From a virus, in IMG/VR virus record IMGVR_UViG_3300043607_000039, positions 1-64,000 of that record: DNA of 64,000 nt; one strand, 5' to 3'. Under the pieces are notes generated by a model. That model was not told the origin of the DNA. It worked only from the letters and a program-made list of their open reading frames with translations, and did not search any database. Made by a program: the position numbers and the translations under genes. Of this stretch, positions 16,901 through 57,853 are shown piece after piece; positions within the stretch are counted from its first letter, which is position 1; every line of letters begins with the position of its first letter.

Positions 16901-19900
16901 GGCTCGCTTGGCCTGATCGTCTACATCATGAAGGGCGATGTAGCGCATCAGGTCGGTGAGCTTCTCGTCCTGGTCCTTACCTTCGATCTGGATACCCAGG
17001 GTGTCGGCCGCCTTGCGCAGGTTCTCCGGCGCCAGGGCATCGCGCTGGTCATCGGTGAGCTTGTCTTGGGAGACCTTCTTCGGCGGGGCCGCCTTCAGGG
17101 CCTTGGCTGCTGCCCGCTTGATGATGGGACGCTGCGGACGAGGCGCTTCGGAAGTTTCTGGAGCCCGATCCCGGTCATGGACCGTGCCCGACACCTTGAC
17201 CCGCTCGATGGCCCGGTACATCCCGGCTACATCGTTGATCATTCGCTTGCGCTGGGCGGCCTCAGCCGGAGTCAGGTCCTTCTCCCGCTGACCGGTCAGG
17301 TCGCGATAGTCGGCTTCCTTGCGACGACGGCTGATCCGGGCACGAAGGTGCTGGAGCGCGTCGGACTTGGACACCTCGCCGTCGCCAACGGCCTGCACCA
17401 GCTGGTCAGGGGTCAGCCTGGTGATACCTTCCCGGTCGAGCTGGGGGACGGTCACCTCAGGAGCGGCGGCCGCGGCCTTAGCTGGGCGCAGACGTGGGGC
17501 GTCCTCCGCCAGCTCACGTTCGAAGCCGCCGACCTCCATGCGTCGGAGGAACTCGGCCTTGTACTGATCGCTGGTCATCCGGGATTCGCCCGGGATCTTG
17601 CCCGAGGCGATGCCCTTCAGTGCGGCACGTGAGGTTGGTAGACCTAGAGCCTTGAGCCGGTTGTTGACGTCAACCGGAGACCCGGCCTCAACGGAGCCCT
17701 CACTGCGACGGGTAACGATCTGCTGCTTCAGTGCTTCCTTGTTGAATCGGCGCGGACTCTGGACACCCTCCTTTTGAGCAGCATCCAGCAGTTGGGCGTA
17801 GGTCTTTCCTTCCAGGTCCGCGTCACGGTCCGATGTGGAGGGAGCCGCTGCCTTTGCTGCCTTAGCCACCTTGGCAGGTGCTGCTGCCTTGGCCACCTTG
17901 GCAGGTACCTTGACGCCGCCCTCAGGCTCCAGGATGAAGGTCTGAGAGGCGCTCGGGTGCAGCTCGACCTGGTCACCGTCATCGTTCCTGAGGGTCAGGG
18001 CAACAGCCCGGGGCCGGCTGCTGACGCCTTGGCCAACGACCTCGAACGGGGTGACGTTGGTTTTGCGTGTGGTCGGGCGCCACTTTCCATCGGCACCCTT
18101 CTCCAGCAGGACCCGAACGCCAGGCTGTAGTCGACGGGCGGTGAGCTTGCCCTCGGCGGTGCCGGCCGCCTTCTCGACCGCGGGTGCAGCCTTCTTGGCT
18201 ACGGCAGCCGGCTTTGGAGCCGGTGTCTCAGGGAACCCCTTCTTGGCCTCGGCCTCCGCGGCCTTGCGAGCAGCGCCAGGCGTGGGGTAGGCACCACCCA
18301 CCGGCTCGCTCAGTGTGCTCTTCCGATCGGTCCGGACGACCTGGAAGCCTGTCTGTCCTGGCCGCCTGCGGATCTCGTACTTGACGTCAGGGTCGTTAGT
18401 GTCGACCGCGATCTTGCCGGCCGAAATCGGCGACAGGAACTCGGCCATCGCGTCACGCCAAGCGGCGTGGGTGGTGCGACTCGGCTCCTCGGCCACGATC
18501 TCGGCGACTCGTGCCCGGATCAGTTTCTGCGCTGGCTCCGGGAAGTCCTCGAACAGCTTGTTGTCATTGCGGGTGGAGGGCCGTTGCCCCACTGCACGTG
18601 CTGCCTTGACTGGTGCTGCCTTAGCCGCCTTGGCTGGCGCAGCCTTCTTGGCCGCAGGTGCTGACTCGTCACCCAGCCACACTGCGGTGTTGGGGAAGCC
18701 GGCAAGCCAAGAGCCATCGTCACGAGTGATCTTGATACGGTTGCCGTCGCGCTCGACCTTGGTGACCTTGCGCGGGATCCCGAGTTTGGACTTGTCGGAG
18801 CCGGAGCCTCCGCGGACGACGTCGCCGACCTCCACGTTGGTCATGCTCTTGCGCTGGGTGCCGTTCGCCAACGGCGGTAGGAGCTTGGCAGCTGGAGCAG
18901 CCGCGCTGATCTTCTTGACCGGGGCAGCCTTGGCGGGAGCAGCCTTCTTGACCGCGGGTGGCCTACGACCCATGGCGATGTAGACCTGATCGATGTCCTT
19001 CTTTTGCTCAAGCGGGCTCAGCTCAGCGAACGGCTTGTCCAGCTCTCCGCCCTTGACCCAGTCCTCTTCGCCATGCCGCGACAGCCACGCGGCGTGGACT
19101 GCCTCACCCACCTCCAGGCGGGTCTTCTCGTCGGTCAGGTCGACCGTGCCGCCGTGCTTCTCCAGAATGTCCTCAACGACCTTGGCCGCGTCCCGGTTCT
19201 CTTGCTTCCAGTCATCGGGTAGCTCTGCGTAGGGCGTGTTGTAGATGTCGACCTGATCGGTGCCGTGCGCCTCAATCCACGCCTTGTCCGTCGTGGGCTT
19301 GAGTCGCTCCGGCGGACCTTCGCGGCCTTCCTTGCCGGCGGCGCGCTCCTCCATCCACTGCTGCTCGAACGTCTTACGCCAGCCCTCTTGAAGCCGGGCC
19401 GCTTTCGTCTCGACGCGACGTGCACGGGCACGTTCAGCTGGAGTCGACCTCGAAGCGACAGCCTTGGCGGGAGCGGCCTTCTTGGCTGGAGTCTCCGGTG
19501 TGGGCTCCCTAACCGCAGGCGCTTCAGTTGCGGCTGGGGTGGCCTTAGCTGGGGTGGCCTTCTTTGTGCCGCCGGGTGGTGCAACGCGCCAGGGGATTCC
19601 AGCCTTCTCCAGCGCGGCAATCGTGGCCGGTTCAGGCTCGCGAGGGAACAGGACCTCTTCGATGTCATCGTTGCTGACGCCATCGTGGATCTGTGCCTCA
19701 ACGTAGGTCAATTGCTGGAACTGTGGGTCACCAAGGTCGTTGTACTTGGCCGCCGCCGGCTGAGCCGCACGGTAGTCGGGATTGTCGATCGGCATGGGGG
19801 TGAGTTCCTTGCGCCGATCCAGTGAGTCACCAGCGGAAACCGTCGTACGTGGACGGACGCTGTCCTTGAGGACAACCCGGATGTCGCCGTACTGGTCCAG

Positions 19901-22612
19901 CTTCCCTTCGCTGTGCTCACCGTCTAGTCCGCGCGGTGCCACATATCCATAGATAGGCCTGCGTTCAGCAGGAAGGTCCTTGGGGAGGCCAAACGCCATT
20001 TCTTCGAAGTCTGCACGCAGGGCCTTGTCGACGTATCCGCCGTCACTTGTTCCAGTCTCGTGCTGAGTCTTCATGCGACCGCTGGCGAGAATGTCCCGAA
20101 GGCTTGACTCACTGCTGCGGCGAACGACGATCGGCTTGCCTGGGGCCGTAGCTCGGCGAATGGCCTTTGTGGCCTTCTCCTGCATCTCGGGCGTCGCGCC
20201 CGCGTACTGGTCGACCCACGTCTTCCGGTCGTTAACTTGTTCCTTCACCAGGTGGTTGTAAATTCCCCGGTGCTCCTCGAAGAACTTCTTCAGTTCAGGA
20301 ACCCGACCAAAGAGCAATTGGGCATGCAGGTTGTCGTCGAACTCGTCGCCAATAATCACCGGCGGCCGTTCAATGCGGATCAGTTCACGCATCTTGTCGA
20401 TCTCGGCCTGGGGCACGCCCTGCTCGGCTGCGATCCTGTCAAGATCGAAGGCGGGTGCAGTGCCCGCCTTACGTGGCGCCGGAGCCGCCTTGGCCGCCTT
20501 CGCCGGCTCGGGTGCGGGAGCCTTCTCCGCGGCCGGTAGGGACTTCGTGGGCGTCTTCTTCGGCGACTTGACCGGGGTGGGCTTCTGGGGGCCCGCCTCT
20601 GCCAACTCGTCCGCGACGCCGTCAAGTTCGTCAGCCTCGCTCAGGCTAATGTCACGCAGCTCGGTCTCGCTGCGATCTCCCTGATCGTCCAGGTCCCCCA
20701 GTGCCAGGCCGTTTTCGCGTAGGTCCTTCGCCCGGACGCGGAGCCGGTCGATGACAGCGTCACGATCCTTACCGGCCGACAGGTCCCGCTTGGCTCCGGC
20801 AATCGCCTCGTCGCCGGCCACAGTGCTGGTCCGGGCACCGCCGAGGGTGTCCAGGTCGACCCGGCGCTGCTCCTCGCGCTCCTTGCTCTGCGCGATCATG
20901 CGCCGTTCGACGTCGGCGTCTGGTGCCGCAGGAGCTTCAGCTGGGGCAGTCTTCTTGGCTGCGGCCCTGGTCTCCAGGCGCTCACGGGCGACAGCTACTT
21001 CCGGTGCCTCGGGAGCGGCAGCCTTCTTGGCTGGCGCGGCCTTGGCCGCCTTCGCTGGAGCTGGGGCCTCAGGAGCCTCGGCGGGAGTCGCCTTGGCGGG
21101 CGCGGCCTTGGCTGCCTTCTTCGCTGCCTTCTTGGCGGGAGCTGGCGCCTCTGGGGCGCCTCCCTCCGCCTCCTGCTTAATCTGTCGCGCCTGCGACTGG
21201 ATCCGGGTCTCGTCGTCGTTGCGCGGGTAGCCCGGTTCCTTGCTCAGTTCCGCATCTCGCCGGACGACCGCCTTCTTCTGGACATCGGTCATGTCGGCAA
21301 TGGAGTCAGGTGCGCGCTTGACAGCCCGCTTCTTTGGAGTCGGGGCCGCAGCAGCAGGAGTTGTCCCGGCACCAGGCTGCTGGTCCATGAGCTGCTTGAT
21401 CAGCTGCTGGTTCAGCTTGATCTGCTCCAATTGCGACTTGGTCAGTTGCTCCTGGGCGCGCATGACGCGCTCCTGCTGCCGGTCAACGATGGCCTGCTGG
21501 GCGGCAACCCGCTTCTGCTCCTGCTCAAGTCGAGCCTCTTCTGGGCTCAGGACCTGCTTGGACGGGCGAGGTGTGATCTTCTCCCGGGGGGCGATTTCCT
21601 CGCCGGGCTGCACGACCTTGCCCGCGCCGAGAGGGACCTCTCCCCCGGACTCCTCGATCGCCTTGGCTGGGCTCGGGCCAGGTGGGCCGGCAGGCGCAAC
21701 AGGAGCTGGCGTATGAGCCGGAAGTCCCTGCTCGCCAGGGGCTGGCGTACCCGACGGGGGCAGCGGCTTCGGGATCGGCTGCCCGTCAGCGTCCAAGCCC
21801 CGCTTGGCCAGCTCCTCGGGAGTGGCCTCAATGGCCGGAGACTTCTCGCTCTCGGGAAGTTCGGCGCCCAGGCTCCGGGGAGCAACACCACTACCCTGCC
21901 TTGGCATGGCCGTGGCGTAGATGTAGGTACCGCCGTGCCCGTCCTTCTCCACCTTCATGATCTGAAGGGGCTGATCCTTGTCCAGGATGACCGACGTGAA
22001 GCCATCGCCAACAACGACGGCGTCAGTGCCGCGAGGGGCCAGGATCGACCAGGTGACATGGGGACCTGTGGTCTGGCGGGGTGAGCCGAGGTTGGTGGCC
22101 GAGAACGCTTTGTTGCTGACGAGCTTGCCGGTCCACTCCTCGATCTCGTCCATGCGCTCAGGAGGTAGGCCAAACTGCTGACCGTCGCCAACCCAGGTGA
22201 GGAGCATGTCCGCCGGCAGCGGCTCCATCATCGCGCTGATGTCGTTGATCTCGTCAGCGGGACCTTCGACCTTGCCCTTGGCGCCCTTGTCCTTGGGGTC
22301 ATAGCCGGCCCACATGGACTGGGTGATGCTGTCGTAGCCCTCAGGCGTGTAGAACTTTGTGATCGACTCGTTCTGCCGCTGCGTACGGGGCTTTGTCTTT
22401 ACCGCCCGCAGGTAATTGCCGGCGTGCTTATCGGACCTGAACTCAGCGGCATCGAAATGCTTCAGAATTCGGTCGACGATACCCATAGCGCGAGCACCAA
22501 GGCGCCAGCTATTCCGGAACCGACCGTGGCTGTCCCTTGGGTGCAGCTCGGCTTTCCAGTTCGCTACGTCGACTGCAAAGTCCGACGAACTGTCCCACGG
22601 GTCGACGGCCAC
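4955..22612 (-). CDS. Giant (5,885 aa) polyvalent protein: degenerate ART, 2x DUF3626-like, RyR-like, ART, GrpE-like, PI3/4K/HipA-like kinase, GNAT-like, zincin metallopeptidase
   Basis: HPRDSHGRF N-terminal motif; RPIYGY/YVEAQIH twice; LYRG..GNGTY..GYDAI..YVILN; DRHNNN..FDN; HEFGH..YATSDPQEDYAES; PAKKA linkers. Confidence 0.85.
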   Translation of the reverse strand: MAVDPWDSSSDFAVDVANWKAELHPRDSHGRFRNSWRLGARAMGIVDRILKHFDAAEFRSDKHAGNYLRAVKTKPRTQRQNESITKFYTPEGYDSITQSMWAGYDPKDKGAKGKVEGPADEINDISAMMEPLPADMLLTWVGDGQQFGLPPERMDEIEEWTGKLVSNKAFSATNLGSPRQTTGPHVTWSILAPRGTDAVVVGDGFTSVILDKDQPLQIMKVEKDGHGGTYIYATAMPRQGSGVAPRSLGAELPESEKSPAIEATPEELAKRGLDADGQPIPKPLPPSGTPAPGEQGLPAHTPAPVAPAGPPGPSPAKAIEESGGEVPLGAGKVVQPGEEIAPREKITPRPSKQVLSPEEARLEQEQKRVAAQQAIVDRQQERVMRAQEQLTKSQLEQIKLNQQLIKQLMDQQPGAGTTPAAAAPTPKKRAVKRAPDSIADMTDVQKKAVVRRDAELSKEPGYPRNDDETRIQSQARQIKQEAEGGAPEAPAPAKKAAKKAAKAAPAKATPAEAPEAPAPAKAAKAAPAKKAAAPEAPEVAVARERLETRAAAKKTAPAEAPAAPDADVERRMIAQSKEREEQRRVDLDTLGGARTSTVAGDEAIAGAKRDLSAGKDRDAVIDRLRVRAKDLRENGLALGDLDDQGDRSETELRDISLSEADELDGVADELAEAGPQKPTPVKSPKKTPTKSLPAAEKAPAPEPAKAAKAAPAPRKAGTAPAFDLDRIAAEQGVPQAEIDKMRELIRIERPPVIIGDEFDDNLHAQLLFGRVPELKKFFEEHRGIYNHLVKEQVNDRKTWVDQYAGATPEMQEKATKAIRRATAPGKPIVVRRSSESSLRDILASGRMKTQHETGTSDGGYVDKALRADFEEMAFGLPKDLPAERRPIYGYVAPRGLDGEHSEGKLDQYGDIRVVLKDSVRPRTTVSAGDSLDRRKELTPMPIDNPDYRAAQPAAAKYNDLGDPQFQQLTYVEAQIHDGVSNDDIEEVLFPREPEPATIAALEKAGIPWRVAPPGGTKKATPAKATPAATEAPAVREPTPETPAKKAAPAKAVASRSTPAERARARRVETKAARLQEGWRKTFEQQWMEERAAGKEGREGPPERLKPTTDKAWIEAHGTDQVDIYNTPYAELPDDWKQENRDAAKVVEDILEKHGGTVDLTDEKTRLEVGEAVHAAWLSRHGEEDWVKGGELDKPFAELSPLEQKKDIDQVYIAMGRRPPAVKKAAPAKAAPVKKISAAAPAAKLLPPLANGTQRKSMTNVEVGDVVRGGSGSDKSKLGIPRKVTKVERDGNRIKITRDDGSWLAGFPNTAVWLGDESAPAAKKAAPAKAAKAAPVKAARAVGQRPSTRNDNKLFEDFPEPAQKLIRARVAEIVAEEPSRTTHAAWRDAMAEFLSPISAGKIAVDTNDPDVKYEIRRRPGQTGFQVVRTDRKSTLSEPVGGAYPTPGAARKAAEAEAKKGFPETPAPKPAAVAKKAAPAVEKAAGTAEGKLTARRLQPGVRVLLEKGADGKWRPTTRKTNVTPFEVVGQGVSSRPRAVALTLRNDDGDQVELHPSASQTFILEPEGGVKVPAKVAKAAAPAKVAKAAKAAAPSTSDRDADLEGKTYAQLLDAAQKEGVQSPRRFNKEALKQQIVTRRSEGSVEAGSPVDVNNRLKALGLPTSRAALKGIASGKIPGESRMTSDQYKAEFLRRMEVGGFERELAEDAPRLRPAKAAAAAPEVTVPQLDREGITRLTPDQLVQAVGDGEVSKSDALQHLRARISRRRKEADYRDLTGQREKDLTPAEAAQRKRMINDVAGMYRAIERVKVSGTVHDRDRAPETSEAPRPQRPIIKRAAAKALKAAPPKKVSQDKLTDDQRDALAPENLRKAADTLGIQIEGKDQDEKLTDLMRYIALHDVDDQAKRAERRQLRTMTREAKGLRKDSEANERFGPGGPDHVDVRQLARDGRINMADLAAYSDVAQARLNTGSSPTQVADMLERFVGDMRTQNTILNGDWGRDGVDLPESYWRGKARTHDREKNRIDQLQKLADKIRARDAGRPAPAKAAPAKATKATKGAKKAAPAKKANLGEALTEAAAPRRTAAEVDDRLKALGLPTDRKELEDSASIKVPGAMGLTDEDYKASLLRRLEARTAAGGEGVEAPRLRAAKAAAPTVAAPSREGRVRDNGKIPNGKLLKGDRVLVAPAEDGRWRPAVRQGGSKPITVDRVEQVGNRLKVVVGHDDDGNEVRVDNANNAVGGIGLPSQQTFIMEREGRTSAKKAAPARAPAAQLNENDTVLNDLSAKKITKAAAVQQLRGLDTPESRQLADELETGPDVVSRRDIRPGDVVMGEDREQHTVGEVVGRTLLDRQGKPIDALGRGDVIRMSKGEGGEEAAPAGPAPRARRVTRPKNPAQIRKDLSAATTPEARQKVLDDLGPMNKTQWRVLAKQLGIVSAGRDDEAGVQAKIVRHFTPKHPDRAVAGHVIPTRARKALLERKTTKERQDYLDSLELSQSEARELARDLGVRGQDRSNVDQIKEKINNGFAPVEEPEVAAPAAARIPRGPIKDPIARAKAWGAEHDYKGRVGGWIFGPGGKDTKYQGWQSLYEGRKAEIDKWERDRLKARDTALLERDEARVAKKTAPAAAKQTPLAELRDRASKAGIAGRSRMTRKDLEEALAKHDRGETEAPTPTKVTRAAAKKAAPAVQSQAKRDFVPSTPGLSMKDEHWLMRNHQENPDGGEVLRDADPIPPQLRKLGLVKTRVRGGKRESILTDDGKAALVRAIPAQKARMDRLHAKQDADRIKNRTEIEAQNRSVAVVVDGIVNPTNLRQALVDAHGPAARQRVLDNVEKQLKQAQTGRAQYRDLPVATWRSLAGRNGLGIKGLAQSDKKAIHAAIIQHFADADAARKADLRAKKVETKDLTEGAGTARSIVDSAIADPHFRRRAGWGSGLTKELETDRGGDLLGEKLAERQGFDALPEVVSRDEFEARRKDMGTILYRGIDTAGRDGGFGEQFKGKPASEVHDEFREGRYHMGNGSFGNGTYMTKNKQHATGYSDLTEGAVARYGLAKDAKIAELPDLIEEHNAYVATLDEDSPEMQLLGNDIGRYAMARGYDAIHVPRGSQCVGCPAEGAKDQYVILNRGKIIAEAPGDKRTVAQARRDIAAAKKADTSTEGQLARVLPQKEVPAKKATPLPAVEAPIRTFDLDEMTDGQKDFTPRDKARLEGYQKQLDEGVSPRDIARDIDQYVNGAASPFYRAMILRQLGEDRDSRLVPQPPEYWAQRDREEAALVAEGSRWAALRDKLKVLRKPSQRISAPPTKATGRAKKAAPAAKEVEWSVEPGEGFIKDITFYRNSDLGYITEFPPDEDNPKHSYKAYKADMGGKASFPTLQQAKDWMEGRDTTTMGEFEPGQRGYEPPPGQSVSELREALDAAIARRGRAFEAEGQAGYDRETPHVNEAGLKLKSAAGLQEKTRKRISEAVPKPRNKADRDADAVAERISRSGQAGTGYRIPGWLDGLTPEQRRRVGSRLGMSNMTAVKDEDLNDTILRTLNFERPKATPAAPERPVKITRAAAKKATAADLQAPETQRARQYLLGNGDGMLEEADVQAEMDRLEAQDAEDLRRLAGRPVDESEKLTRDSVKLTRDSTGDGGIMHGDSPAMKLAQRLAHRGRNGSANKVMDMRADYSGPNSRDPEASQRAVDELRLMRLEEQDPAIRELYDEALSKMDAPERPVPDLPEDTPPLARKLIEDLNRIPLARRPESVNDGDERKSAVEQLAEAFREISDGEPRASDKIRKILRRYHESRDGAYSMWKLDPEAGNNDALSKEIRTWRMDRYRQHQAGEVPAKPEFAGIGRNALPKDGSGSSTPRFEPPATVANPKSNWGKARDNVRFKWSAAHGRPANLDQVDRVYTADSPDDAKQFLDRLSDQKLEDIADAASIPVLSSMDRDTRIDRIIKGIREPEGGAPAAPMKAAAPAAPQAVRAVPAGGPSTDLSREDQARVRRLIRQDPQIYATVQDRHGRVATSGNLGKEDAEWLDDVHKREPAFVEHVAQETQIRRRLDKDAKAAGDTPAAYRAKVAARLKEKFADKPIAVRVRDEDALDDILSNGRFKTQFDRGARRAPGLDSSPERRRLGEHVLGTPVDTAPDKRPVYGYVAVNGVEPALPGGRKISGISQREGQEDSLSPYGRVQVILKPDVRSRTTASVGDSLDELPFVRPSPVDNPSADSLGINKLDAMDSPDWTRSHYVEAQIHGGVTKDDIAEVVFPEQPSPAIAKKLDDAGIPYRVLGRDGETSAPSAAPVKKAAPTKKAAAPKQLTQKEAYSAPPEELAKAADEGRISRRAAAIQIRRRAGAVQTEGYSTDASDVERRRAADLETDRIRALADRVEDGDGPVVVREGTLRPGEPRKGDRELPPRPVEKADVPSESQLTQPSPDATENARKRLQAREAGARRQRAGGTAQLASELEQIIAARRNDRSQAEFRTAVADRLKKTPVGDIDNKSDHNTQGYEDLRKTLKVSDNDTAAKFQARLRKHLESRGITVDGNDGDQVTYDPDKHDLLDGASVQPGELAEIHTPGMYFNDKAPAAPAPRAGVVADPEKWNSGDGVPTSIFLGAESKLGRGVPSNSLAELDRSVRTEDQHHKVPDAYKRTDAALAGAGVGPDERPRKQLREWYESTFKENKDVTPEATESTVVTLQRPVLRSVRGGGDGDLSSRPTPTPDKPFADVETRRSVIGDNYHAGFELLRDFNSSDRAAYLTPRGLDRADTLSRKLRPNELRDVADALHLENTKGDKFDVLRNKVMKDIRRRLGIAEPFGQERREQLESKTMRELLDELPPGMKKPSSITKPQLIDMIVGDGPVGDHHVDLDPEVQALKDAFDAGLTDRSYISTGSMGQVARVEGPDGKKIIRKRMSSDWFMSGEQQADGEQLTSELGRRTGAPQAAVYRPTDRTVFMDEIQGTQAEKHTPEEIDAAVHTPEGRRMAILDAIAGNSDRHNNNWMIVDGRPVGFDNSLAFDDEPKYGPDGEILPDGNHFNDPFRAAYPYRSLETKDTMGVTLITGGQWLDRNEFTTAELTDVRKELEAMKPQFQRLDREAWYDAAHGRLEALIKRASDAPGAPGARAAKKAAPAKATTRAPRVPEGPAVAAARARLEGVDAEKKAKLTKALNRDQKAELRTLTPGQRNEYWRERLGRREVDHDTAVDRATPSDGVSAPTPAAKKAAPAKKPNVRTKAGQRQVIESAIDEALRVGDGLDGPAAAMYVDRMGGRGSPKDVLEGIRDRIRAGEATTDFDSVEYTMNRMTDAWKNNGVIDPATGRYKSPFSDDQSDEYQEFVEAKTRIRKLFTDVLDSIRASKPDGRSTESPRLREPEGPQVKLTDKATVRELAANGFDDDGQKYLSDMPEAQRQAITSAFDVDDDGKSFRVDPERSFVYKDIDGNPVIRVEGDVKDGDGGIVGGFRRVLYPATGTVHNDMFALEKAQQQQGLSTRFNDQQDRRLADLGFTRATISPAFNGGLASARRDFRWQTDRRGAAGDVPSRIGQAFSRATPEEREVLSGWLDRFVEQDMKDWPTPKEISDQGELGRSIMNGSSWSGEKQLGTGDRPKIAAPRRPSLLERIARPASSAVPASSSRAITGRLGGDRTVDSILEEDTWPQGTNVRDLTLSVGYKVGSGTAWRRNGVVYVVEHGDTPEERQRAAVGVNRLIAHANNLPPGASRYQRSYVMVQGGHPREGQWQEKWGLLGPDQEPLRTAASASFGNTIVWHDGEGSGDHLDGDLNHEFGHNVDTTSPVYGSQSAAWVKAATKSPNPNERITDFKPTKASEFESTFPRGNFTYGVTPYATSDPQEDYAESIRLYMLGVVGTGTLTNGSGWSGDVYFRDLFPERAAVLDKLFPELAEQQRADIARARG

Positions 22613-22868: not shown

Positions 22869-23987
22869 TTACCGGTCGCTGTTTTGGGCGAAAATCGGGT
22901 CACCCGACTTGGCGTACTGGTCCAACTGGGTCCGTTCCTCGTCCAACGAGGCCAGCATGGAGGCCCGACGGTCCTGGTTGTGACGCTCCAGGTCCTCATC
23001 GATTTCCTTCCACCGCTCCAGTCGGGCGGCCAGCTCGTTGCCGTCATCCATCACGTCGTCGGCCGGGAACTCCGGAACCTCGGTTTCGCTCTCCATGCTG
23101 AACTCACCTTCACTGGTGTCCTCGTCCTCCAGGCCAACGACGCCAACGGCCATGAGGCTGAATGCACGGTTCTCCTGCTCCCGGTACACCGGGAATCCAG
23201 GGTTGTTCACGGCGAGAGCTGCGATCAGCTCCAGGTTGCCGTTAACGCTGCGCCAGTCACCCGACAGGGCGGCGGCGCGGAACTCGGCCACCTTCTCTGG
23301 GGTCATCGTCGTGGTGAGGGCGCCATTGATCCAGATGCCGTGCCGGTCCTCACCGACGTTCACGACGGCCGCGGCCCAGCCGGTGTTGTCGTAGTGCTCG
23401 CGGCTGGGCATGATGCCCCACCGCTCGTTGGCATGACCGGTACCCAGGGTGATCTTGCCGATGGGGGCCGAGCTGCCGTCGTCGCAGACCACAGTGCCGA
23501 CGCGGAACAGCTGGTAGTTGGTCCTGGTCTTCGGGGCCATGACGCACTGGGTGCCAATGCCGACGTGGCAGACCTTCCACTGGGCCAAGTGGCCGAAGAC
23601 GTGACCGTCCTCGTCGATAGTCAACCGGGTCGGACCCTTGAGGCCAGGATCGGCGAACCAGCCAGCCGGCGGAGCTAACGGAGCCGCGCCTGCCATCAGG
23701 GACGGTCGACTGGGCATGCTCGGCATGCTGGGCATTCCTCCTCCGTAGGCCATCTCGCCGGCATCGTCAGACGTCTCGACGCCGTACTTCTTGAGCGCGG
23801 TCTGAATCCGGCCCTTGATTTCCTTGAGCTGTTCGGGGGTGTACTTGGCCGCATTCTTGGCCACGTTGATGTAGCTCCACGCGGCCCGGCAATGCGCTTC
23901 CGTGTCCAACGGGTAGCGCTTCTTGCCATCGTCCTGGTAGCCAGGGTCGGCGTACTTCACGTCGCCGTACGGTTCCTTGTCAGCCAT
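22869..23987 (-). CDS. Capsid maturation protease-like protein 2 with DUF6582-like N-terminus
   Basis: YADPG..RYPLD..RAAWSYI N-domain; GHLAQW..CH and LSGDWR..LAVNNPGF. Confidence 0.65.
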   Translation of the reverse strand: MADKEPYGDVKYADPGYQDDGKKRYPLDTEAHCRAAWSYINVAKNAAKYTPEQLKEIKGRIQTALKKYGVETSDDAGEMAYGGGMPSMPSMPSRPSLMAGAAPLAPPAGWFADPGLKGPTRLTIDEDGHVFGHLAQWKVCHVGIGTQCVMAPKTRTNYQLFRVGTVVCDDGSSAPIGKITLGTGHANERWGIMPSREHYDNTGWAAAVVNVGEDRHGIWINGALTTTMTPEKVAEFRAAALSGDWRSVNGNLELIAALAVNNPGFPVYREQENRAFSLMAVGVVGLEDEDTSEGEFSMESETEVPEFPADDVMDDGNELAARLERWKEIDEDLERHNQDRRASMLASLDEERTQLDQYAKSGDPIFAQNSDR

Positions 23988-24005: not shown

Positions 24006-25196
24006 TCAGTAGCCGCACTTGGCACAGAAGCCGTCGTCATTCATGTGGCACCCGTCAGCCCCATACGGGTCCTTTTCTTCGTTCATGCTCCGCACGACAT
24101 CGGCCGGTGGAGTTGGTCCGAATGTAATGGTCACATTCTGGACCGGAGCTGAGTAGCCCCCGATGGTGAAAGTGTTCGTGCCTGTTTCTACTGCCGATAG
24201 CGACATAACTCCTCCTTGCTCCTCCAACTCGGCGATGCGGTCAGTGCAGCCGCAGTCTTCGTCGGTCTCAATAGACGCCTGATCCTGACGAAGACCTTCT
24301 TGGAACGGTGACGTCAGGTTGGGATCGTTGAACGCCCCAGCCATCGCCCCGTACAGCTCGTTGATGACCGGGATCATCTGCTGCTTGTCTGCGTCCGGGA
24401 TGTTCGGCAGACCGCCATGGGCACCGGAGAGCAACGCCGCCGCGGAGTAGACGGCGTGATAGATCAGGTACAGCTGGCCGTTGATGACGTCGGCCAGTGG
24501 GAGCCGGAAGGAGTCCTGAGCCAGAGAGTCACCGGCCTGGTTGCCGTTGCGCCACAGAAAGGCCGAGGCGTACCGATCCAAACTGGGCTCGCGGCTGCCG
24601 ATGCCGGCCCAGTAGGCGATCCGCTTCACGGCGTCGTCGGCGTCGAACTTGTACTCGCGCGGGGCCAGTGGCCACTGCTTCCACGAGTCCGCATTGACGT
24701 CGAAGTGGTAACCCCAGTCCTCGGTGTCGATGCCAGCGGAGGCGAGGATGGTGCGCTCATCGTCGTTGTCGACCGACATGTGCACCTGATGGAAGGCGGG
24801 CATCGGGACCAGTGTCACGCCGATGACGTTGTACTCCTTGAACAGTCCGGCCTTCTTCTCCGGGCGCAGCGGGTGCTTCACCGCTTCAACCGTGAAGTCC
24901 CGATCCAGGTCCACCGACGGTCCCATGACCTTCTGCTGGAGCATGTAGATCGCCTTCGGGACCTCGGGCACCTGCTCGGGGTCCAGGAACACGCCCTCAC
25001 CCCAGTAGCCGCCGGGACCGTCAAAGACCCGGTCGACGCGACCCACCACTGTGGCCCCGTCGTGGCCCCCAGAGGAGAACCGGGCTAACAGCGGAAAGGG
25101 GGTGGGGCGGTGGGTGAGCTTCCCGGCCGCGAACATCCGACCGTCACCGGTAGGCACCTCGGTCGGGGCTAATAAACCCCTCCATTTGACCGTCAT
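24006..25196 (-). CDS. Capsid maturation protease
   Basis: TGDGR, GHDGA..VG, PSVD and TLVPMPAF prohead-protease motifs. Confidence 0.75.
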   Translation of the reverse strand: MTVKWRGLLAPTEVPTGDGRMFAAGKLTHRPTPFPLLARFSSGGHDGATVVGRVDRVFDGPGGYWGEGVFLDPEQVPEVPKAIYMLQQKVMGPSVDLDRDFTVEAVKHPLRPEKKAGLFKEYNVIGVTLVPMPAFHQVHMSVDNDDERTILASAGIDTEDWGYHFDVNADSWKQWPLAPREYKFDADDAVKRIAYWAGIGSREPSLDRYASAFLWRNGNQAGDSLAQDSFRLPLADVINGQLYLIYHAVYSAAALLSGAHGGLPNIPDADKQQMIPVINELYGAMAGAFNDPNLTSPFQEGLRQDQASIETDEDCGCTDRIAELEEQGGVMSLSAVETGTNTFTIGGYSAPVQNVTITFGPTPPADVVRSMNEEKDPYGADGCHMNDDGFCAKCGY

Positions 25197-30584: not shown

Positions 30585-30677
30585 TCGGCTAGATTCTCAA
30601 GCGCCTGACCTGCGCAAACACTCCTTCGCCCTCACCCGAATGTACGGGTGAGGGCGATGTGTGTTTCGATGGAAGGC

Positions 30678-31973
30678 ATGACCAAGACCCAAACGCAAGA
30701 CGTATGGGCCAAGGCCAAGCCTTGGGTCCTACGCAGCACAGTCGCAGTCATGGTCCTGTTCCTGGCGTTCACCGCGTCCGGGGCATGGGCAACTCCGCCA
30801 CCCCAGCTCGTAGTGAACCCAGGACCCGGAATGTCCTGTGGGCCGCTGACACAGAACGCGAACGGTGACTACGTCGCCACGTGCACGATCACGGGCCTCG
30901 TGACCCCAGGCGCTACGGCATCCCCGTCGCCCAGTGGCTCCCCGAGTCCAAGTCCGACTGGCTCTCCGTCTGCGTCCCCATCGCCGAGCACTAGCTCGCC
31001 AAGTCCGTCACCGAGCAGCAGCAGCTCCCCGAGCCCGAGCCCCACGGTCACGGTGCCGCCTACCTCGCCACCGCCGACTGGACCCACGACCGGCTGCATG
31101 CCAGTGCCTTCACGGTGCGGGTTCCCGGATGCGACCAACACGGGTGTGCCGGCCGGGACCGTCCTGGCCGAACGCATGGGCAAGGTCACGCTGACCACCG
31201 GCCAGAGCCTGATCAACACTCAGGTCATCGGCTGTGTGCAGATCGTCGGGCAGAACGTGACCATCCGCAACGTACGGATCGTCAGCACCTGCTCGTACGC
31301 GGCCATCGACCTGGAGGACAACAACACGACCGGGGCTTTGATCGAGAACGTTGAGATCGACATGCGACTGCTGGCCAACTCGGCCGCATTCACTGGCCGG
31401 CTCAACCAGCGCTCGATCACCGGTGACAACTTCACCGCCCGCAAGGTGTGGTGGCACGGCGGTTCGGACTGCGTGCACTACGGCAGCAACGTTCTCATCG
31501 AGGACAGTTTCTGTGACGTGGCCCTGATTCCGGCCGGCTACCCCGGCGACCCGCACATCGACGGTTTCCAGAGCGCTGGTGGCAACAACGTCACCCTGCG
31601 GCACAACACGATCCGGAACCCGAACAACCAGACGTCGGCCATCATCAACGGCACCACGCCTGGTACGTCTGCACCGCAGACCAACGTGCACATCGTGGGC
31701 AACCTGATGGCGGGCGGCGGTTACACCGTCTACTGCCAGGCCCACCCGGGCCCAGCTCCGGCCACGGTCGAGTTCCGGGACAACCGGATCAGCTTCGACT
31801 ACTACACCTGGCCGATCAACTCCGGCCACCCGTTGACCCGCGGTGGGTTCTGGGGCCCGACCACGGACTGCACCAACGTCCCCGGCTTCTCGACGAACGT
31901 CTGGGACAGCACCGGCCCCCGCAACAACACCAAGCTCCCGTTGGTGGAGAACCCCGGAGTCGGTCAGCTCTAG
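30678..31973 (+). CDS. Secreted right-handed beta-helix protein with Ser/Pro linker
   Basis: Signal peptide, (SP)n linker, FPDATNTGVP, HIDGFQ..NVTLRHNTI. Confidence 0.65.
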   Translation: MTKTQTQDVWAKAKPWVLRSTVAVMVLFLAFTASGAWATPPPQLVVNPGPGMSCGPLTQNANGDYVATCTITGLVTPGATASPSPSGSPSPSPTGSPSASPSPSTSSPSPSPSSSSSPSPSPTVTVPPTSPPPTGPTTGCMPVPSRCGFPDATNTGVPAGTVLAERMGKVTLTTGQSLINTQVIGCVQIVGQNVTIRNVRIVSTCSYAAIDLEDNNTTGALIENVEIDMRLLANSAAFTGRLNQRSITGDNFTARKVWWHGGSDCVHYGSNVLIEDSFCDVALIPAGYPGDPHIDGFQSAGGNNVTLRHNTIRNPNNQTSAIINGTTPGTSAPQTNVHIVGNLMAGGGYTVYCQAHPGPAPATVEFRDNRISFDYYTWPINSGHPLTRGGFWGPTTDCTNVPGFSTNVWDSTGPRNNTKLPLVENPGVGQL

Positions 31974-32099
31974 CAGTTGACCACACCCCCACCTGGGGGT
32001 AACGTACGAGACGGTTCTCCTTCGCATCAGGCGGGACCGGAACGAGCAGGCCCCAGCTCCCCATCGCTGGGGCCTGCTCCTCGTTCGAGGGGGTTGGGC

Positions 32100-32483
32100 G
32101 TGGTCTGGTACATCCTCGACGACAACAACAATCCAGTCCCGGTCTCCGACATCCTCGTCTGGGGCCGATGGTTCGAAGAGGCGAGCGTCAGTCGGCGTCG
32201 GATCGTGGCTTCGGACTTCCTTGGTGCCACCCTGGTATCGACTGTCTTCTTGGGCATCGATCACGGTTTCAGCTGGGAAGCAGGGCCACCCCTCCTGTTC
32301 GAGACGATGATCTTCTATGACCAGGACTACGGCGACGAGATGGGAACCTGGAGGTATTCGACCTGGACCCAGGCGGTCGCCGGCCACGACCAGGCGTTGA
32401 TGGTGGCCAGGGAGCAACTGGCCAAGCTGGCGGCCGTGGTCGACCAGCTCATCACAGAGAGCAACAGTCCGGAAGGAGAGTGA
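32100..32483 (+). CDS. Conserved phage hypothetical protein
   Basis: VSTVFLGIDH..FETMIF..RYSTW..A..GH. Confidence 0.6.
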   Translation: MVWYILDDNNNPVPVSDILVWGRWFEEASVSRRRIVASDFLGATLVSTVFLGIDHGFSWEAGPPLLFETMIFYDQDYGDEMGTWRYSTWTQAVAGHDQALMVAREQLAKLAAVVDQLITESNSPEGE

Positions 32484-32549
32484 TCGACATGCCTAGCACG
32501 CGTTAGTCCACGGCACCGTGCCGTGGCGGCTTAGGGGCAGGTCGCTTAC

Positions 32550-32912
32550 ATGTCCAGGACAGATGTCCACGCACCATGGCGGGTGAAGCAGCGGGATCCG
32601 CTGTGGCGCCACTACTTCCGTGAGGTGCACCGTCATGATGACGGTGTCTGCACGCTCGACCGTTTCCTGGCCGCCACCAGCCGGGTCAGGACTTCCTGCT
32701 ACATCGACTTTGCCTGGCGCGGCCGGCAGATCCACTGTGGCTGCGGCAGTTGCACGGATCAGGACGGCCGTCGGATGAGGCGTCGTCGGGAACGGCACGA
32801 GGTTCGTCAAGCCCTGCTCCTGGGAGACTGGGACAACCTCGATGTGGAGTTGCATCGGGATGCCTGGTGCACGTACAACGTCCAGCCGCGACCCCAGGAT
32901 AGGGATGTGTGA
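32550..32912 (+). CDS. Arg/Cys-rich hypothetical (MSRTD family)
   Basis: N-terminus resembles that of 57854..58264. Confidence 0.55.
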   Translation: MSRTDVHAPWRVKQRDPLWRHYFREVHRHDDGVCTLDRFLAATSRVRTSCYIDFAWRGRQIHCGCGSCTDQDGRRMRRRRERHEVRQALLLGDWDNLDVELHRDAWCTYNVQPRPQDRDV

Positions 32913-33185: not shown

Positions 33186-33326
33186 ATGTACCGGAACGCC
33201 TTGTCGACAACGCAGCAGTCGCTGCGCGGCGAAGCGACCCCGGGCAGCGGACGGCGACTGGTCTCCATGTACAAGGCCAACGATTGGTTCTGCCCCCAGG
33301 AGCACATCCACCGGCGGAGCAGCTAG
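33186..33326 (+). CDS. Putative leader peptide (46 aa)
   Basis: AGGAG RBS; followed by a terminator-like hairpin. Confidence 0.4.
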   Translation: MYRNALSTTQQSLRGEATPGSGRRLVSMYKANDWFCPQEHIHRRSS

Positions 33327-33339
33327 GGTCCAGAAACCC

Positions 33340-33380
33340 GAAGCCGCCCACCCAGTGAACCTGGAAGAGGCGGCTTTCTT
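33340..33380 (+). terminator. Terminator-like hairpin before the first tRNA
   Basis: AAGCCGCC...GGCGGCTT followed by TCTT. Confidence 0.5.
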
Positions 33381-33653: not shown

Positions 33654-33730
33654 GGGGGTATGGCGCAGTTGGTAGCGCGTCTGTCTGTATGGCATACAGA
33701 AGGCCCGCGGTTCGAGTCCGCGTATCTCCA
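33654..33730 (+). tRNA. tRNA-Ala(GGC) with 4-nt TCTG duplication
   Basis: G3:U70; loop ATGGCAT; extra TCTG before the anticodon stem. Confidence 0.7.
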
Positions 33731-33826
33731 CGGGTCGTAGTTCAGGGTAGAGCGCCGCGTAAAGGTGTTAGCCGCAAGGTGCACGGAATGTAGCGGAGGC
33801 GCAGGAATCGAATCCTGCCGACTCCA
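33731..33826 (+). ncRNA. tRNA-like RNA with anticodon loop replaced by a 34-nt insert
   Basis: Acceptor, D and T arms present; CCGC/GCGG stem encloses a GCAA-capped hairpin. Confidence 0.6.
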
Positions 33827-35407: not shown

Positions 35408-35480
35408 GCCTCGGTGGGCTAATGGAAAAGCCGCGGTACTCAAACTGCCGTGAATGACGGTTCGAATCCGTCCCTTGGCA
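35408..35480 (+). tRNA. tRNA-Leu(CAA), short variable loop
   Basis: Loop CTCAAAC; two acceptor-stem mismatches. Confidence 0.6.
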
Positions 35481-35486
35481 CGCAAT

Positions 35487-35678: not shown

Positions 35679-35755
35679 GCGGATGAAGCTCAGCCTGGTC
35701 GAGCGCTATCTTGCCAAGGTAGATGTCGCGGGTTCGAATCCCGTCTTCCGCTCCA
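35679..35755 (+). tRNA. tRNA-Gly(GCC)
   Basis: Loop TTGCCAA; CCA encoded. Confidence 0.9.
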
Positions 35756-35765
35756 GTAACAACAT

Positions 35766-35837
35766 GCGGGTGTGGCGCAACGGTAGCGAGGCTCCCTCTA
35801 AAGGAGATGGTTGCGGGTTCGAGTCCCGTCGCCCGCA
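35766..35837 (+). tRNA. Amber suppressor tRNA (CTA)
   Basis: Cloverleaf; CTCC-CTCTAAA-GGAG anticodon arm. Confidence 0.8.
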
Positions 35838-35886
35838 CGTGACAAACACATAGGTAAGAAACGACAAGGTTCATGGAGGTGAACCA

Positions 35887-36330
35887 GTGCAAGCAGTCCT
35901 CGTTCTCAACGCTGACCTCGGGCCCTTGCACCGGGTCAGCCTCAAGCACGCGATCCGGATGCTCTGCCGTGGTATCGCAGAGGTCCACGAAGCGGAGCCT
36001 GACATACGCTTCGGTCTGTGGCCGTGGCCCACTGCGGTCAGACTCGTCCGGTACATCGTGACGAAGTGGCGCTACACCGCTGGACCCGCGTGGTCCCGGC
36101 AAGGCGTCCTGAACCGAGACAACCGGACCTGCGGCTACTGCGGTAGCCGCGAAGGTCGCACCGTCGACCACATTCTCCCCACCTCCCGGGGCGGGAAGAA
36201 CACCTGGCAGAACACGGTCGCCTCGTGCGATCCCTGCAACCAGATCAAAGGCAACCGGACCCCGCAAGAGGCCGGCATGCGACTCCTGGTGAAGCCAGCC
36301 GCCCCGAGCTGGGCGACGATGAAGCGGTAA
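35887..36330 (+). CDS. HNH endonuclease
   Basis: RD..TCGYCG..TVDHILP.SRGG..W.N.V..C..CN. Confidence 0.9.
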   Translation: MQAVLVLNADLGPLHRVSLKHAIRMLCRGIAEVHEAEPDIRFGLWPWPTAVRLVRYIVTKWRYTAGPAWSRQGVLNRDNRTCGYCGSREGRTVDHILPTSRGGKNTWQNTVASCDPCNQIKGNRTPQEAGMRLLVKPAAPSWATMKR

Positions 36331-36882: not shown

Positions 36883-36963
36883 GGGGGTAGTAGGTACGAC
36901 TGGTGTTGAAGGCCGAGGCATCGGAGCGGCATCAGGACTCGGGTTCGAATCCCGATACCTCCA
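36883..36963 (+). ncRNA. Minimal tmRNA-like RNA (tRNA-like domain only, no tag ORF)
   Basis: GGGGGTA/TACCTCC-A with G3:U70; stemless D-loop GG...CGAC; 9-bp P2 helix; GAC linker; TCGGG-TTCGAAT-CCCGA T-arm. Confidence 0.75.
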
Positions 36964-36972
36964 CACGGAAAT

Positions 36973-37045
36973 GCTCTGGTAGCCCAAAGGTAGAGGCACT
37001 GTCTTGAGGAGGCAGCCAGTGGGAGTTCGACTCTCCCTCGGAGCA
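36973..37045 (+). tRNA. tRNA-Leu(GAG), short variable loop
   Basis: Loop TTGAGGA. Confidence 0.85.
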
Positions 37046-37046
37046 C

Positions 37047-38705: not shown

Positions 38706-38780
38706 GCCGAGGTAGGCCACGCTGGCGAGCCGCTGCATTTAGGGTGCAGTGTTAGGCGGGTTCGACTCCCGTCCTCGGTA
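38706..38780 (+). tRNA. tRNA-Leu(TAG), short variable loop
   Basis: Loop TTTAGGG. Confidence 0.8.
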
Positions 38781-38817
38781 CTTGAAATAGCAGACGTGGT
38801 GAGTAAACTGTCATCCC

Positions 38818-39382: not shown

Positions 39383-39455
39383 GGGCGGGTACTCCAACGG
39401 TAGAGAGAGCTGATTTAAAACCAGTCCAGTACGGGTTCGACTCCCGTGCCGCCCA
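39383..39455 (+). tRNA. tRNA-Leu(TAA), short variable loop
   Basis: Loop TTTAAAA. Confidence 0.75.
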
Positions 39456-39499
39456 CAGTTGGTTTTCAGCAGTACCCTCTCCTGGAGAGAGATAGTCAA

Positions 39500-41520: not shown

Positions 41521-41606
41521 GGAAGAGCCACCCGATTGGAGACGGGCGCAGTTTTGAAAACTGTTAGAGTCGCAAGGCTTTGGGGATTCGACTTCCTCCT
41601 CTTCCG
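41521..41606 (+). tRNA. tRNA-Ser(TGA)
   Basis: Loop TTTGAAA. Confidence 0.8.
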
Positions 41607-41818: not shown

Positions 41819-41894
41819 GGATCCGTACCCAAAGCCTGGTTTATGGGCCCGCCTCTTAAGCGGAGTTACGTCGGTTCAAATCCGACCGGATCCA
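41819..41894 (+). tRNA. tRNA-Lys(CTT)
   Basis: Loop CTCTTAA. Confidence 0.85.
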
Positions 41895-44362: not shown

Positions 44363-44848
44363 ATGCCCGAGTTGCCGAAGTGGTTCCCGAAGACCTTGGA
44401 AGACATGTACCGCCCCGAGGTCCCGGGTCGCACCGTCGACGATGACCGAGTCGCCGAGTCCCATGGCGGCGGTGCCTGCCCCGAGCAGCACTGGGGCGTC
44501 CTGACCGACGGGCGCCGGTTCTACTTCCGGTACCGCAGTGCCTGGGCCTCGGTTCGACTGGCGCCGGCCTGGTATGACGGTGCCGACGTCCACGCCCGGG
44601 ACCTGAGGGTTTCCATGGAGCAGTGGAACGAGGCCTACGAGCGCGGCGACGAGGAGCTACCGAACCTGTACCTCAATCCGGTCGCCGGCTTCCAGGTCCG
44701 GGAGGACGACCCATATCACGGGTGGTTCGACAGTGCAGCCGAGCGGGCGATGGCCTTTGCTGCCTGCCTGGATCAGGTCTGGGATGAGCCCTTCGATGAG
44801 GAGGGCTGGGAATTGCACCGCGGGCGGAAAGAGGAGCCCGACTTCTAG
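44363..44848 (+). CDS. Conserved hypothetical protein
   Basis: ACPEQ.WG...DGR.FYFRYR. Confidence 0.6.
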   Translation: MPELPKWFPKTLEDMYRPEVPGRTVDDDRVAESHGGGACPEQHWGVLTDGRRFYFRYRSAWASVRLAPAWYDGADVHARDLRVSMEQWNEAYERGDEELPNLYLNPVAGFQVREDDPYHGWFDSAAERAMAFAACLDQVWDEPFDEEGWELHRGRKEEPDF

Positions 44849-44919
44849 CCGATGACGGACTGGTTCCGAGCGCTGACTGTAAATCAGTAGCCTTGGGGGT
44901 TCGAATCCCTCCGTCGGCA
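44848..44919 (+). tRNA. tRNA-Tyr(GTA), short variable loop
   Basis: Loop CTGTAAA. Confidence 0.75.
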
Positions 44920-44932
44920 CGCGTCAATTAAC

Positions 44933-55500: not shown

Positions 55501-55615
55501 ACCACCAGTCGCCACGCATAATCTCGTCAATAACCCAGTCAGGTTGCTCGGCTAGCCACGCTCTCCTGTCAATTTCAGGAAGCGCAGCGACTCGGTCCTG
55601 GAGAGATAACGCCAT
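52589..55615 (-). CDS. terL: Terminase large subunit with two inteins
   Basis: GRGWGK|S Walker A, WLDE Walker B, TTTP, GVDP and SPDRLDA nuclease motifs. Confidence 0.95.
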   Translation of the reverse strand: MALSLQDRVAALPEIDRRAWLAEQPDWVIDEIMRGDWWWVARPEQIPPPGNWFVCLALAGRGWGKAIDVSTSIPVANCSTDERRRPVPGRGGFKKLGDLEVGDWVFDEAGKPCRVTATFDQDPEVAYRLTFNDGLYIDTCSEHQWVTWEHRDRKAYLRSQYESDTTRFPLDWPTWRPMKRHKSNPPYRDQEGPGPRIRTTQDLVDTLTYNARGDLNHSIPLTGALELPEVRLTVDPWLLGYWLGNGSTSAGTISGHLADIDHVVECVIDAGFDCLLRPRDGQWFTGTPGGLVSQLRHIDVLDNKHVPQKYLWASVEQRRALLAGLMDSDGYGEASKVEFCSITKELADGVMHLARSLGQRPYMHVGRAQLYGVDKGAKYRVSWRPTFNPFTSPRKMATYVPPDGQGLRTQHRMIIGAERIDPTPMRCITVDSPNSMYLVGEGLIPTHNSRSGSEWIVSQTIKHPYDSRGVPTEWLVIAETLSDGRTICMEGPAGILQVLNRRKIRHRYKMSPRPMVLFPSGTKIYTEGADDPDVGRGYNSSGAWLDEICIAKNEPILTRSGPRLGTPVQDVRVGDEVLTRNGYARVIMSRLTQPDAEVWEISTGGTATVRLTPDHRVWTDEGWRKVSELHVNDVVWTAKYGAPEDMLGRGLAPHHPVRISGIRRMPETINVYDITVEGDDPEFFAGSGRILVHNCKWKFPKKSWEEGIMPSLRADLAGDHPRAFVTTTPKPVDILQEWVRRGDGTVHLMRGSTFENASNLSSLVIEELRRRYEGTMVGRQELYGEIIEAFEGALFSRLDIENNRILDVPDDLVATVVGVDPSLTGEDDEMGIVVVGRDRQKHMYVLADRSIMSVGRAAALEAWRVVAEFGADKLVCEVNLGKKWMSQVFHDAYFELVGQGLFPAHTKPPIVGIDTKIGKRTRGEPVAMRCEQGRLHILGHQQELEDQMSTFVGWGTRDSPDRLDALVHACRFLMDGEKKEVRISSPRDALSSTLQSLWQDAGSYNYGF
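53534..53971 (-). mobile_element. Class 1 mini-intein next to the TerL Walker B
   Basis: CIAK... start, TPDH, VYDITV, LVHN|C. Confidence 0.9.
54272..55420 (-). mobile_element. Class 3-type intein with LAGLIDADG endonuclease in the TerL P-loop
   Basis: Ala1 start; EHQW, RCITV and PTHN|S (WCT triad); LLAGLMDSDG. Confidence 0.85.
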
Positions 55616-57487: not shown

Positions 57488-57550
57488 CTCAGTGGATAGA
57501 GCGCCGTCCTCCTAAGACGGAAGTCACTGGTTCAAGTCCAGTTCGGGGCA
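57478..57550 (+). tRNA. tRNA-Arg(CCT)
   Basis: Loop CTCCTAA. Confidence 0.9.
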
Positions 57551-57853
57551 CGGTTGGACAAGCCGAAAAGCCTTCGGGCCGATCCCTTCGCGCCAGCCAC
57601 GTAGGTCGACGCTTCAAGGTTCTGACGACCTACGTTTCATAACTAAAACAAGAACCCCGGGCGTTTTAGCTGGTGGAGTTTCGGCCCTTAACTAAAGCTC
57701 CCCCCCACCCGGGAGCTACCCGTGGAGCGAGGCGACGGTATACGGACGCTGAGCGGTGATACGGGGCCCGGGTGGTTACAACAATCCACATTGGACGAAG
57801 GAGGTGCGTCATGACCTAGGTAGCCAGAAGTTCTGGCCTTCAGAGAGGTCGCC

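Follow-up and report, generated by a model that had tools for sequence, protein, structure and literature searches.

Why should a phage that stops many of its own genes at TAG also encode a tRNA that would read this codon? The question arises at positions 35766-35837 (+) of the DNA analysed here, where a tRNA gene with anticodon CUA lies inside a long array of other tRNAs. The window, the whole stretch of 64 kb that was analysed, is the first part of a 93,000-bp virus record, with 63% GC and no terminal repeat, which encodes a major head protein, a portal, a large terminase and HNH endonucleases. All cultured relatives retrieved with the capsid protein are actinophages, at no more than 44% identity, and small genes within the array carry DUF397 and inhibitor I36 domains, which are typical of actinomycetes; on these two grounds the host is probably an actinobacterium. 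Elsewhere in the genome, a single ORF of 5,885 amino acids occupies 4955-22612 (-), between the head-maturation genes and the gene for the major head protein, with coding-like GC3 throughout. The large terminase (52589-55615 (-), 1,008 residues) has its terminase matches split and primase-like and DnaC-like matches at residues 89-150, so that an intein or another insertion may be present.

The array runs from 33398 to 57551 (+), the last tRNA being Arg(CCU) at 57478-57551, and comprises 43 tRNAs called by ARAGORN plus a Lys(CUU) found with Rfam only, with small genes in between. The latter tRNA (41819-41894 (+), 46.6 bits) is visible in the sequence too, and its presence means that tRNA(CUA) is not its mutated replacement. 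Immediate neighbours of tRNA(CUA) are a tRNA-Gly(GCC) with U73 and an encoded CCA (35679-35755 (+)), which ends 10 nt upstream and, to judge from the spacing, is probably co-transcribed with it, and an HNH endonuclease gene (35887-36330 (+); PHROG 16726, E 2.5e-27). The endonuclease gene begins 48 nt past the tRNA with its own Shine-Dalgarno (SD) sequence and GTG start, and is not amber-gated.

Other members of the array are unusual in their own right. All four Leu and both Tyr tRNAs (35408-35481, 36973-37046, 38706-38781, 39383-39456, 33654-33731 and 44848-44920) are only 73-78 nt long and do without the long variable arm that these two isotypes usually have in bacteria; long-arm Tyr tRNAs are retained in most relatives. 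The ends of the tmRNA model match 84 nt at 36883-36966 (+) with 45.4 bits, marginally short of the gathering score (47), and counterparts in two relatives reach 48.4 and 47.1 bits; the element looks like a tRNA-like domain that has no tag-encoding part. A long-arm tRNA-like element at 41521-41605 (+), not called by ARAGORN, scores 43.8 bits with the tRNA-Sec model (gathering score 47) and may be a Ser(UGA)-type tRNA.

The structure of tRNA(CUA) itself leaves little to argue about. ARAGORN, run on the window, places a tRNA of 73 nt, anticodon CTA, at 35766-35838, and the Rfam model RF00005 matches 35766-35837 (72 nt) over its full length with 58.2 bits (E 5.7e-10; gathering score 29). Read from the sequence, the acceptor stem consists of seven base pairs, GCGGGUG/CGCCCGC, U6-G67 among them; a 2-nt linker leads to the D stem, whose loop has 7 nt; the variable loop has 5 nt. 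Everything characteristic of a canonical elongator tRNA is present: the 7-bp acceptor, U8, A14, G18G19, U33, a purine at 37 and a T loop, UUCGAGU, of the UUCRA type. The anticodon (35798-35800, tRNA positions 34-36) sits between U33 and A37 in a 7-nt loop, C-U-CUA-A-A, as in an amber suppressor. The discriminator is A73 and CCA is not encoded. Weak points of the cloverleaf are the mismatches G10.A25 and G27.A43. Minimum free energy folding of the tRNA alone gives z -0.95, and a weak signal of this kind is usual for tRNAs. ARAGORN labels the gene tRNA-Pyl, and this we reject. Pyrrolysine tRNAs have a small D loop without G18G19, a 3-nt variable loop, a 6-bp anticodon stem and a single base between acceptor and D stems, with pylS and pylBCD nearby; here the D loop contains G18G19, and the variable loop and linker are 5 and 2 nt long, so that the label reflects the anticodon only.

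A sequencing error at the anticodon, which the original prediction had named as a way in which it might fail, is unlikely. Public soil metagenomes contain this DNA, and the probable source assembly has no difference over the tRNA stretch, at a k-mer depth of 10. More tellingly, an independent soil run, X3, yields a contig from a diverged strain that covers 35785-35987 and differs at 15 sites. Of these, the 14 listed are all at 35850 or beyond it: none of them falls in the covered segment of the tRNA, anticodon included, while the flank collects its 14 within about 80 nt. It is the sameness of the tRNA segment in a diverged strain from an independent soil metagenome that makes an error unlikely, and the drift of the flank beside a segment that was kept speaks for purifying selection on the latter. 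Among the public runs holding this DNA, no RNA run is listed. We regard it as practically certain that this is a real tRNA(CUA) gene.

The body of the tRNA is that of a glycine tRNA. The original prediction, which had described a good cloverleaf, a Gly-like acceptor GCGGGTG combined with A73 and the lack of a Gly(CCC) tRNA in the window, is borne out on each of these points: Gly(CCC) is missing from the entire 93-kb record too, where glycine is served only by the UCC (34319) and GCC (35679) tRNAs. A naive Bayes isotype classifier from which the anticodon was masked was built on the 272 short-variable-arm tRNAs found in eight related arrays, and was correct for 239 of them (88%) in leave-one-out tests. 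It assigns tRNA(CUA) to Gly, favouring it over Trp by 13.8 nats; the median margin was 12.7 nats when calls were correct and 2.9 when they were wrong. When prokaryote species, each represented by one genome, were scanned for the 24-nt T arm and 3' acceptor with one T-loop base left free, at least 120 loci were found. Among the matches listed, 115 cellular tRNAs were called, and all 115 are Gly tRNAs (79 UCC, 35 CCC and 1 GCC). Best among the matches listed is a tRNA-Gly(CCC) of Pyrinomonadaceae soil metagenome-assembled genomes (MAGs), which is identical at nucleotides 1-24 as well, a part lying outside the search pattern; outside positions 25-44, the only differences between it and tRNA(CUA) are at position 59, in the T loop, and at the discriminator. 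Other cellular tRNAs with the same 5' half are likewise Gly(CCC), with U73 and an encoded CCA. The changes thus cluster in the anticodon arm and at position 73, where U has become A, and tRNA(CUA) very probably derives, as its sequence suggests, from a tRNA-Gly(CCC).

The exact 5' half occurs in 3 of 401 sampled genomes from the phylum of a Pyrinomonadaceae MAG and in none of 401 from the class of a Streptomyces genome, matches that are too sparse for the host to be named from them. On contig DASYSD010000016.1 of a Pyrinomonadaceae MAG, the 23-nt Gly(CCC) 5' half is repeated 8 kb away with no complete tRNA there; the second copy may be the footprint of an element that integrated into that tRNA gene.

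Glycine ancestry does not settle what the tRNA carries. The acceptor pairs of bacterial tRNA-Gly (G1:C72, C2:G71 and G3:C70) are all present, but the strongest determinants for glycyl-tRNA synthetase are C35, C36 and U73, and in their place tRNA(CUA) has U35, A36 and A73. As all three major determinants have been replaced, charging may be poor. The discriminator is strongly isotype-specific in these arrays, being U in 24 of 24 Thr and G in 8 of 8 Trp tRNAs; their Gly tRNAs have U73 in 14 of 17 cases and A73 in the other three, and A73 is found in four of the five CUA tRNAs of the clade. A73 with U35 and A36 coincides with determinants of tyrosyl-tRNA synthetase and partly with those of lysyl-tRNA synthetase. 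The inserted residue could then be Gly, Lys, Tyr or another; since both anticodon arm and discriminator differ from the glycine ancestor, it is not deducible from the sequence, as had been said from the outset.

The genome surrounding this tRNA is not recoded. High-GC3 ORFs of at least 100 codons cover 77.8 kb of the 93 kb under the standard code, and crude gene calls end in TGA 53 times, in TAG 20 times and in TAA 18 times. TAG thus ends 21% of genes here, and 28-51% in seven relatives, the GC content of these eight genomes being 57-63%. As a stop codon it is used no less often where a CUA tRNA is present (fractions 0.21, 0.38, 0.28, 0.35 and 0.51) than where none is (0.35, 0.47 and 0.39). 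When every stop was checked by homology, none of the TAG codons of this genome fell opposite a sense residue in an orthologue, and behind the TAG stops of its genes no coding-like or conserved extension was seen. Nor was a backup-stop signal found: extensions past TAG are no shorter with the suppressor than without it, and TAG, which is enriched as the next in-frame stop after a TAG stop relative to other stops, is equally so in genomes that have no suppressor tRNA. That long ORFs are intact and the genome as a whole not recoded, despite a tRNA of amber-suppressor type, was accordingly correctly foreseen.

The search of the rest of the genome for release-factor and synthetase genes that the original prediction had proposed gave no aminoacyl-tRNA synthetase or codon-specific release factor among the scanned or assigned ORFs of at least 300 residues. 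The sole related protein is a GGQ-only RF-1-domain protein of 142 residues, like the peptidyl-tRNA hydrolase ArfB, at 70152-70580 (-) of the record, beyond the window; its gene is kept in most relatives, including some that lack a CUA tRNA. In one relative, G002, an in-frame TGA of this gene falls at a position where the other genomes encode Trp.

Several apparent interruptions were seen elsewhere. A read-through fusion of phrog_781 and portal is rejected in favour of translational coupling, the intervening stop being TAG, TAA or TGA among relatives irrespective of the CUA tRNA, and a fusion of the in-frame pair 30648-31973 and 31977-32483 found no support. The adjacent ORFs 24006-25196 (-) and 22869-23987 (-), with an in-frame TGA between them, match phrog_859 positions 381-542 and 547-786, respectively, and could represent either one gene that has been split or read-through of TGA. 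Within the clade a single in-frame TAG was observed, in G004 (IMGVR_UViG_3300044699_000054, 69782-70480 (-)), a genome without a CUA tRNA, where a highly conserved phrog_859-like gene has TAG at a position occupied by Leu in all seven other genomes; a nonsense mutation, an error of assembly and read-through are possible explanations.

We then asked how widely the tRNA recurs. Searches with the capsid protein identify a clade of uncultivated phages, 87-158 kb in size, whose arrays are all syntenic, with 34-47 tRNAs. The comparison set consists of eight complete genomes, namely the present one (G000) and seven relatives (G001-G005, G008 and G009). Five of the eight have a CUA tRNA, in four different array slots: behind Gly(GCC) in G000, between Ala(GGC) and Phe in G002, between Lys(CUU) and Arg(UCU) in both G003 and G005, and between Trp and Pro in G008. 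In the three arrays without it, Rfam adds no further tRNA. No real opal (UCA) or ochre (UUA) suppressor is present among the 330 array tRNAs.

Whether these five share one origin is a harder matter. The classifier calls the G008 copy Gly, places those of G003 and G005 near Arg or Lys and finds that of G002 ambiguous. Pairwise identities between CUA tRNAs are 0.57-0.74, compared with medians of 0.68 for orthologous array tRNAs and 0.57 for different isotypes; as these ranges overlap, the number of independent origins cannot be counted from identity alone. For the G000 copy, the exact match of both halves to a cellular Gly(CCC) argues for a separate and fairly recent recruitment. BLAST searches with tRNA(CUA) in 10 related records gave no clear orthologue, the best match being a Gly(CCC) of G005 at 78%. 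Searches of the region with megablast and blastn against 50,697 phage records found short tRNA matches only and no close relative, and an exact-pattern scan of IMG/VR with the segment from D arm to anticodon arm, the anticodon being left free, found nothing. Be there one origin or several, exactly CUA has been kept across the divergence of these phages, which favours selection and function over decay.

If the tRNA is used, where might it act? Three short ORFs around the array, all three ended by TAG, are the only candidates that emerged. The first is a leader ORF of 46 codons (33186-33326 (+), TAG at 33324-33326), separated from the first tRNA by a terminator-like hairpin at about 33340-33377; read-through would add 26 codons, across the hairpin and into that tRNA. 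The others precede two genes of a family, here called MSRTD, that bracket the array. MSRTD gene 1 (32550-32912 (+), 120 residues, no Pfam hit), at the head of the array, is preceded by a five-codon ORF encoding MPSTR (32489-32506 (+)), which has an SD sequence and pairs with the ribosome-binding region of the gene. MSRTD gene 2 (57854-58264 (+), 136 residues) directly follows the last tRNA, Arg(CCU), and is preceded by a two-codon ORF encoding MT (57811-57819 (+)), again with an SD sequence, and then by a hairpin and the start of the gene. The order before each MSRTD gene is therefore the same: SD sequence, TAG-ended ORF of two or five codons, hairpin, main start.

Leaders of MSRTD genes end in TAG in 12 of 13 cases across the eight genomes, against a background of 36% TAG among SD-led mini-ORFs. 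A wider IMG/VR survey of MSRTD loci added four new contigs, whose leaders end twice in TAG and once in TGA, one being ambiguous. The leader RNAs fold better than shuffled sequences (z -2.8, -1.7, -2.7 and -2.9), the upstream ORF pairing with the downstream ribosome-binding region. On the other hand, some relatives without a CUA tRNA have UAG leaders too, namely G001, G004 and a contig whose visible array contains none, so the leaders are independent of the CUA tRNA, and the frame relation of upstream and main ORFs is not conserved. That the three leader ORFs are targets of tRNA(CUA) is thus, taken by itself, a doubtful proposition, for which they stand as candidates. Other targets were sought with less success. 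No plausible gene emerged when start codons followed by an early TAG and then a coding-like ORF were searched for. An amber-gated Pth2-like gene beside the tRNA can be rejected, since the Pth2 family PF01981 has no match in G000, nor in G001, G002, G003 or G008, and the weak match in G005 contains no early TAG and is far from the array.

The reading that best accommodates these observations is that tRNA(CUA) is a selectively maintained amber-suppressor tRNA whose most plausible use is quantitative, site-specific read-through of UAG, with the three leaders as the best candidate sites; we hold it tentatively, as falling a little short of an even chance. That the tRNA is an active suppressor in vivo is a broader claim, which from its sequence we consider rather more probable than the alternative, and most likely its suppression would be partial, serving a local or quantitative role. 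The steps envisaged are as follows. A tRNA-Gly(CCC) of bacterial type would have become tRNA(CUA) through changes in the anticodon arm, CCC to CUA, and of the discriminator, U73 to A73. It would be transcribed and processed along with the rest of the array, receive its CCA end from the host and be charged by a host synthetase, perhaps residually with Gly or, given A73 with U35 and A36, with Lys or Tyr. At UAG it would compete with release factor 1, with partial efficiency. Read-through at the leaders would carry ribosomes through the hairpins that resemble a terminator or sequester a ribosome-binding site, and expression of the module would in this way be coupled to UAG-decoding capacity. A bolder version, in which the clade possesses an ancestral UAG-sensing control layer and has repeatedly recruited amber suppressors from different tRNA bodies to tune it, forming a feedback loop on array output, seems unlikely. 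The 'selective or timed read-through' of the original prediction hence survives as a possibility in its general form; no TAG-interrupted gene or extension came to light to give it substance, leaving the leaders alone.

The alternative that fares best keeps the suppressor active and dispenses with a dedicated target. Low-level general read-through of UAG would buffer amber nonsense mutations or perturb host translation, its low efficiency making it tolerable. The failure to find a gene-internal TAG, a conserved extension or an amber-gated gene, and the want of a Pth2 module in the genome, fit this well, as do the orphan suppressor tRNAs reported from other standard-code phages, among them Stenotrophomonas phage Summit (PMC9022506), and the phage's ArfB-like protein could clear ribosomes that reach mRNA ends. 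But a phage that ends 21-51% of its own genes in TAG would be hit along with its host, the signature of backup stops is absent, and the ArfB-like gene is found equally in relatives devoid of the tRNA. We rate this alternative as somewhat unlikely.

Slightly less likely still is that tRNA(CUA) decodes nothing, being a by-product of array turnover that is barely charged or not charged at all, or a decoy for a host defence that targets tRNAs. The exchange of all three major Gly identity elements, the two stem mismatches, the lack of any response to suppression in the genomes and the absence of the tRNA from three of the eight can each be read this way. They have to be set against intact universal tRNA elements and an Rfam score of 58 bits, against the conservation of the tRNA relative to its flank in the diverged strain, and against the occurrence of five CUA tRNAs where real opal and ochre suppressors number none among 330, with precisely this anticodon retained over divergence whatever the number of origins.

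An early step towards recoding of TAG, as in code 15, which the original prediction had offered and which has been proposed for standard-code relatives of recoded gut phages, is highly improbable: the published model does have the suppressor tRNA gained before in-frame stops appear (bioRxiv 10.1101/2021.08.26.457843), but it begins with depletion of the stop codon in low-GC genomes, the opposite of a clade at 57-63% GC in which TAG is a major stop and no rarer where the tRNA is present, no in-frame TAG exists in this genome, and the clade's only one lies in a phage that has no CUA tRNA.

As a type of object, this tRNA is not new, since phage suppressor tRNAs, orphans in standard-code phages included, are known (bioRxiv 10.1101/2021.08.26.457843; PMC9022506); what is new is the setting, the recurrence and the traceable origin. 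Such tRNAs have mostly been discussed as tools or as precursors of recoding in low-GC gut phages, whereas here one is kept in a high-GC soil lineage. UAG is among the commonest stops of that lineage, so recoding is not its purpose. The case is an unusually clean one: the ancestor, tRNA-Gly(CCC), can be named, the changes fall mainly in the anticodon arm, and the Gly identity positions 35, 36 and 73 are those replaced, so that the inserted residue and the efficiency of read-through are directly testable. Were the UAG leaders indeed targets, they would represent a new type of phage gene switch and, on the feedback reading, a stop-codon counterpart of gating by a rare tRNA of the bldA type. Were they not, phages that rely on UAG would be seen to tolerate partial amber suppression, which bears on how changes of code begin.

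Gating of expression through a single special codon has cellular precedents. In Streptomyces, the bldA tRNA-Leu(UAA) gates genes containing TTA codons, and prfB and tnaC have leaders that sense a stop codon. They offer an analogy for the leader hypothesis only, in that decoding of one special codon in a short ORF sets expression; in the phage, known from its sequence alone, the codon would be a stop and its decoder phage-encoded and optional.

The body of the tRNA has laboratory counterparts. The groups of Abelson and Miller and of McClain reportedly made amber suppressors of the E. coli tRNA-Gly(CUA) type in about 1990-91, keeping U73. These constructs share with the phage tRNA the Gly body, the CUA anticodon and the acceptor pairs G1:C72, C2:G71 and G3:C70. 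Since they carry U73, and the phage tRNA has A73 and a different anticodon stem, its Gly identity is less certain than theirs.

Recoded phages of the crAss-like, Lak, Agate and other groups (Borges et al., bioRxiv 10.1101/2021.08.26.457843) resemble the present one in having a tRNA(CUA) among the phage tRNAs, presumably charged by a host synthetase, and some of their standard-code relatives also carry one. In contrast to them, the phage described here has no in-frame TAG and uses TAG as a frequent stop, is a high-GC soil phage of actinophage type rather than a low-GC gut phage, contains no release-factor and synthetase 'code-change module', and derives its tRNA body from Gly where theirs is Gln-like.

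Another parallel is Stenotrophomonas phage Summit (PMC9022506), which is reported likewise to combine a predicted suppressor tRNA with the standard code and no identified target gene. Compared with Summit as described there, the tRNA reported here belongs to a near-complete set of about 44 tRNAs, recurs at different slots in five of eight related genomes and has an identifiable cellular ancestor in tRNA-Gly(CCC).
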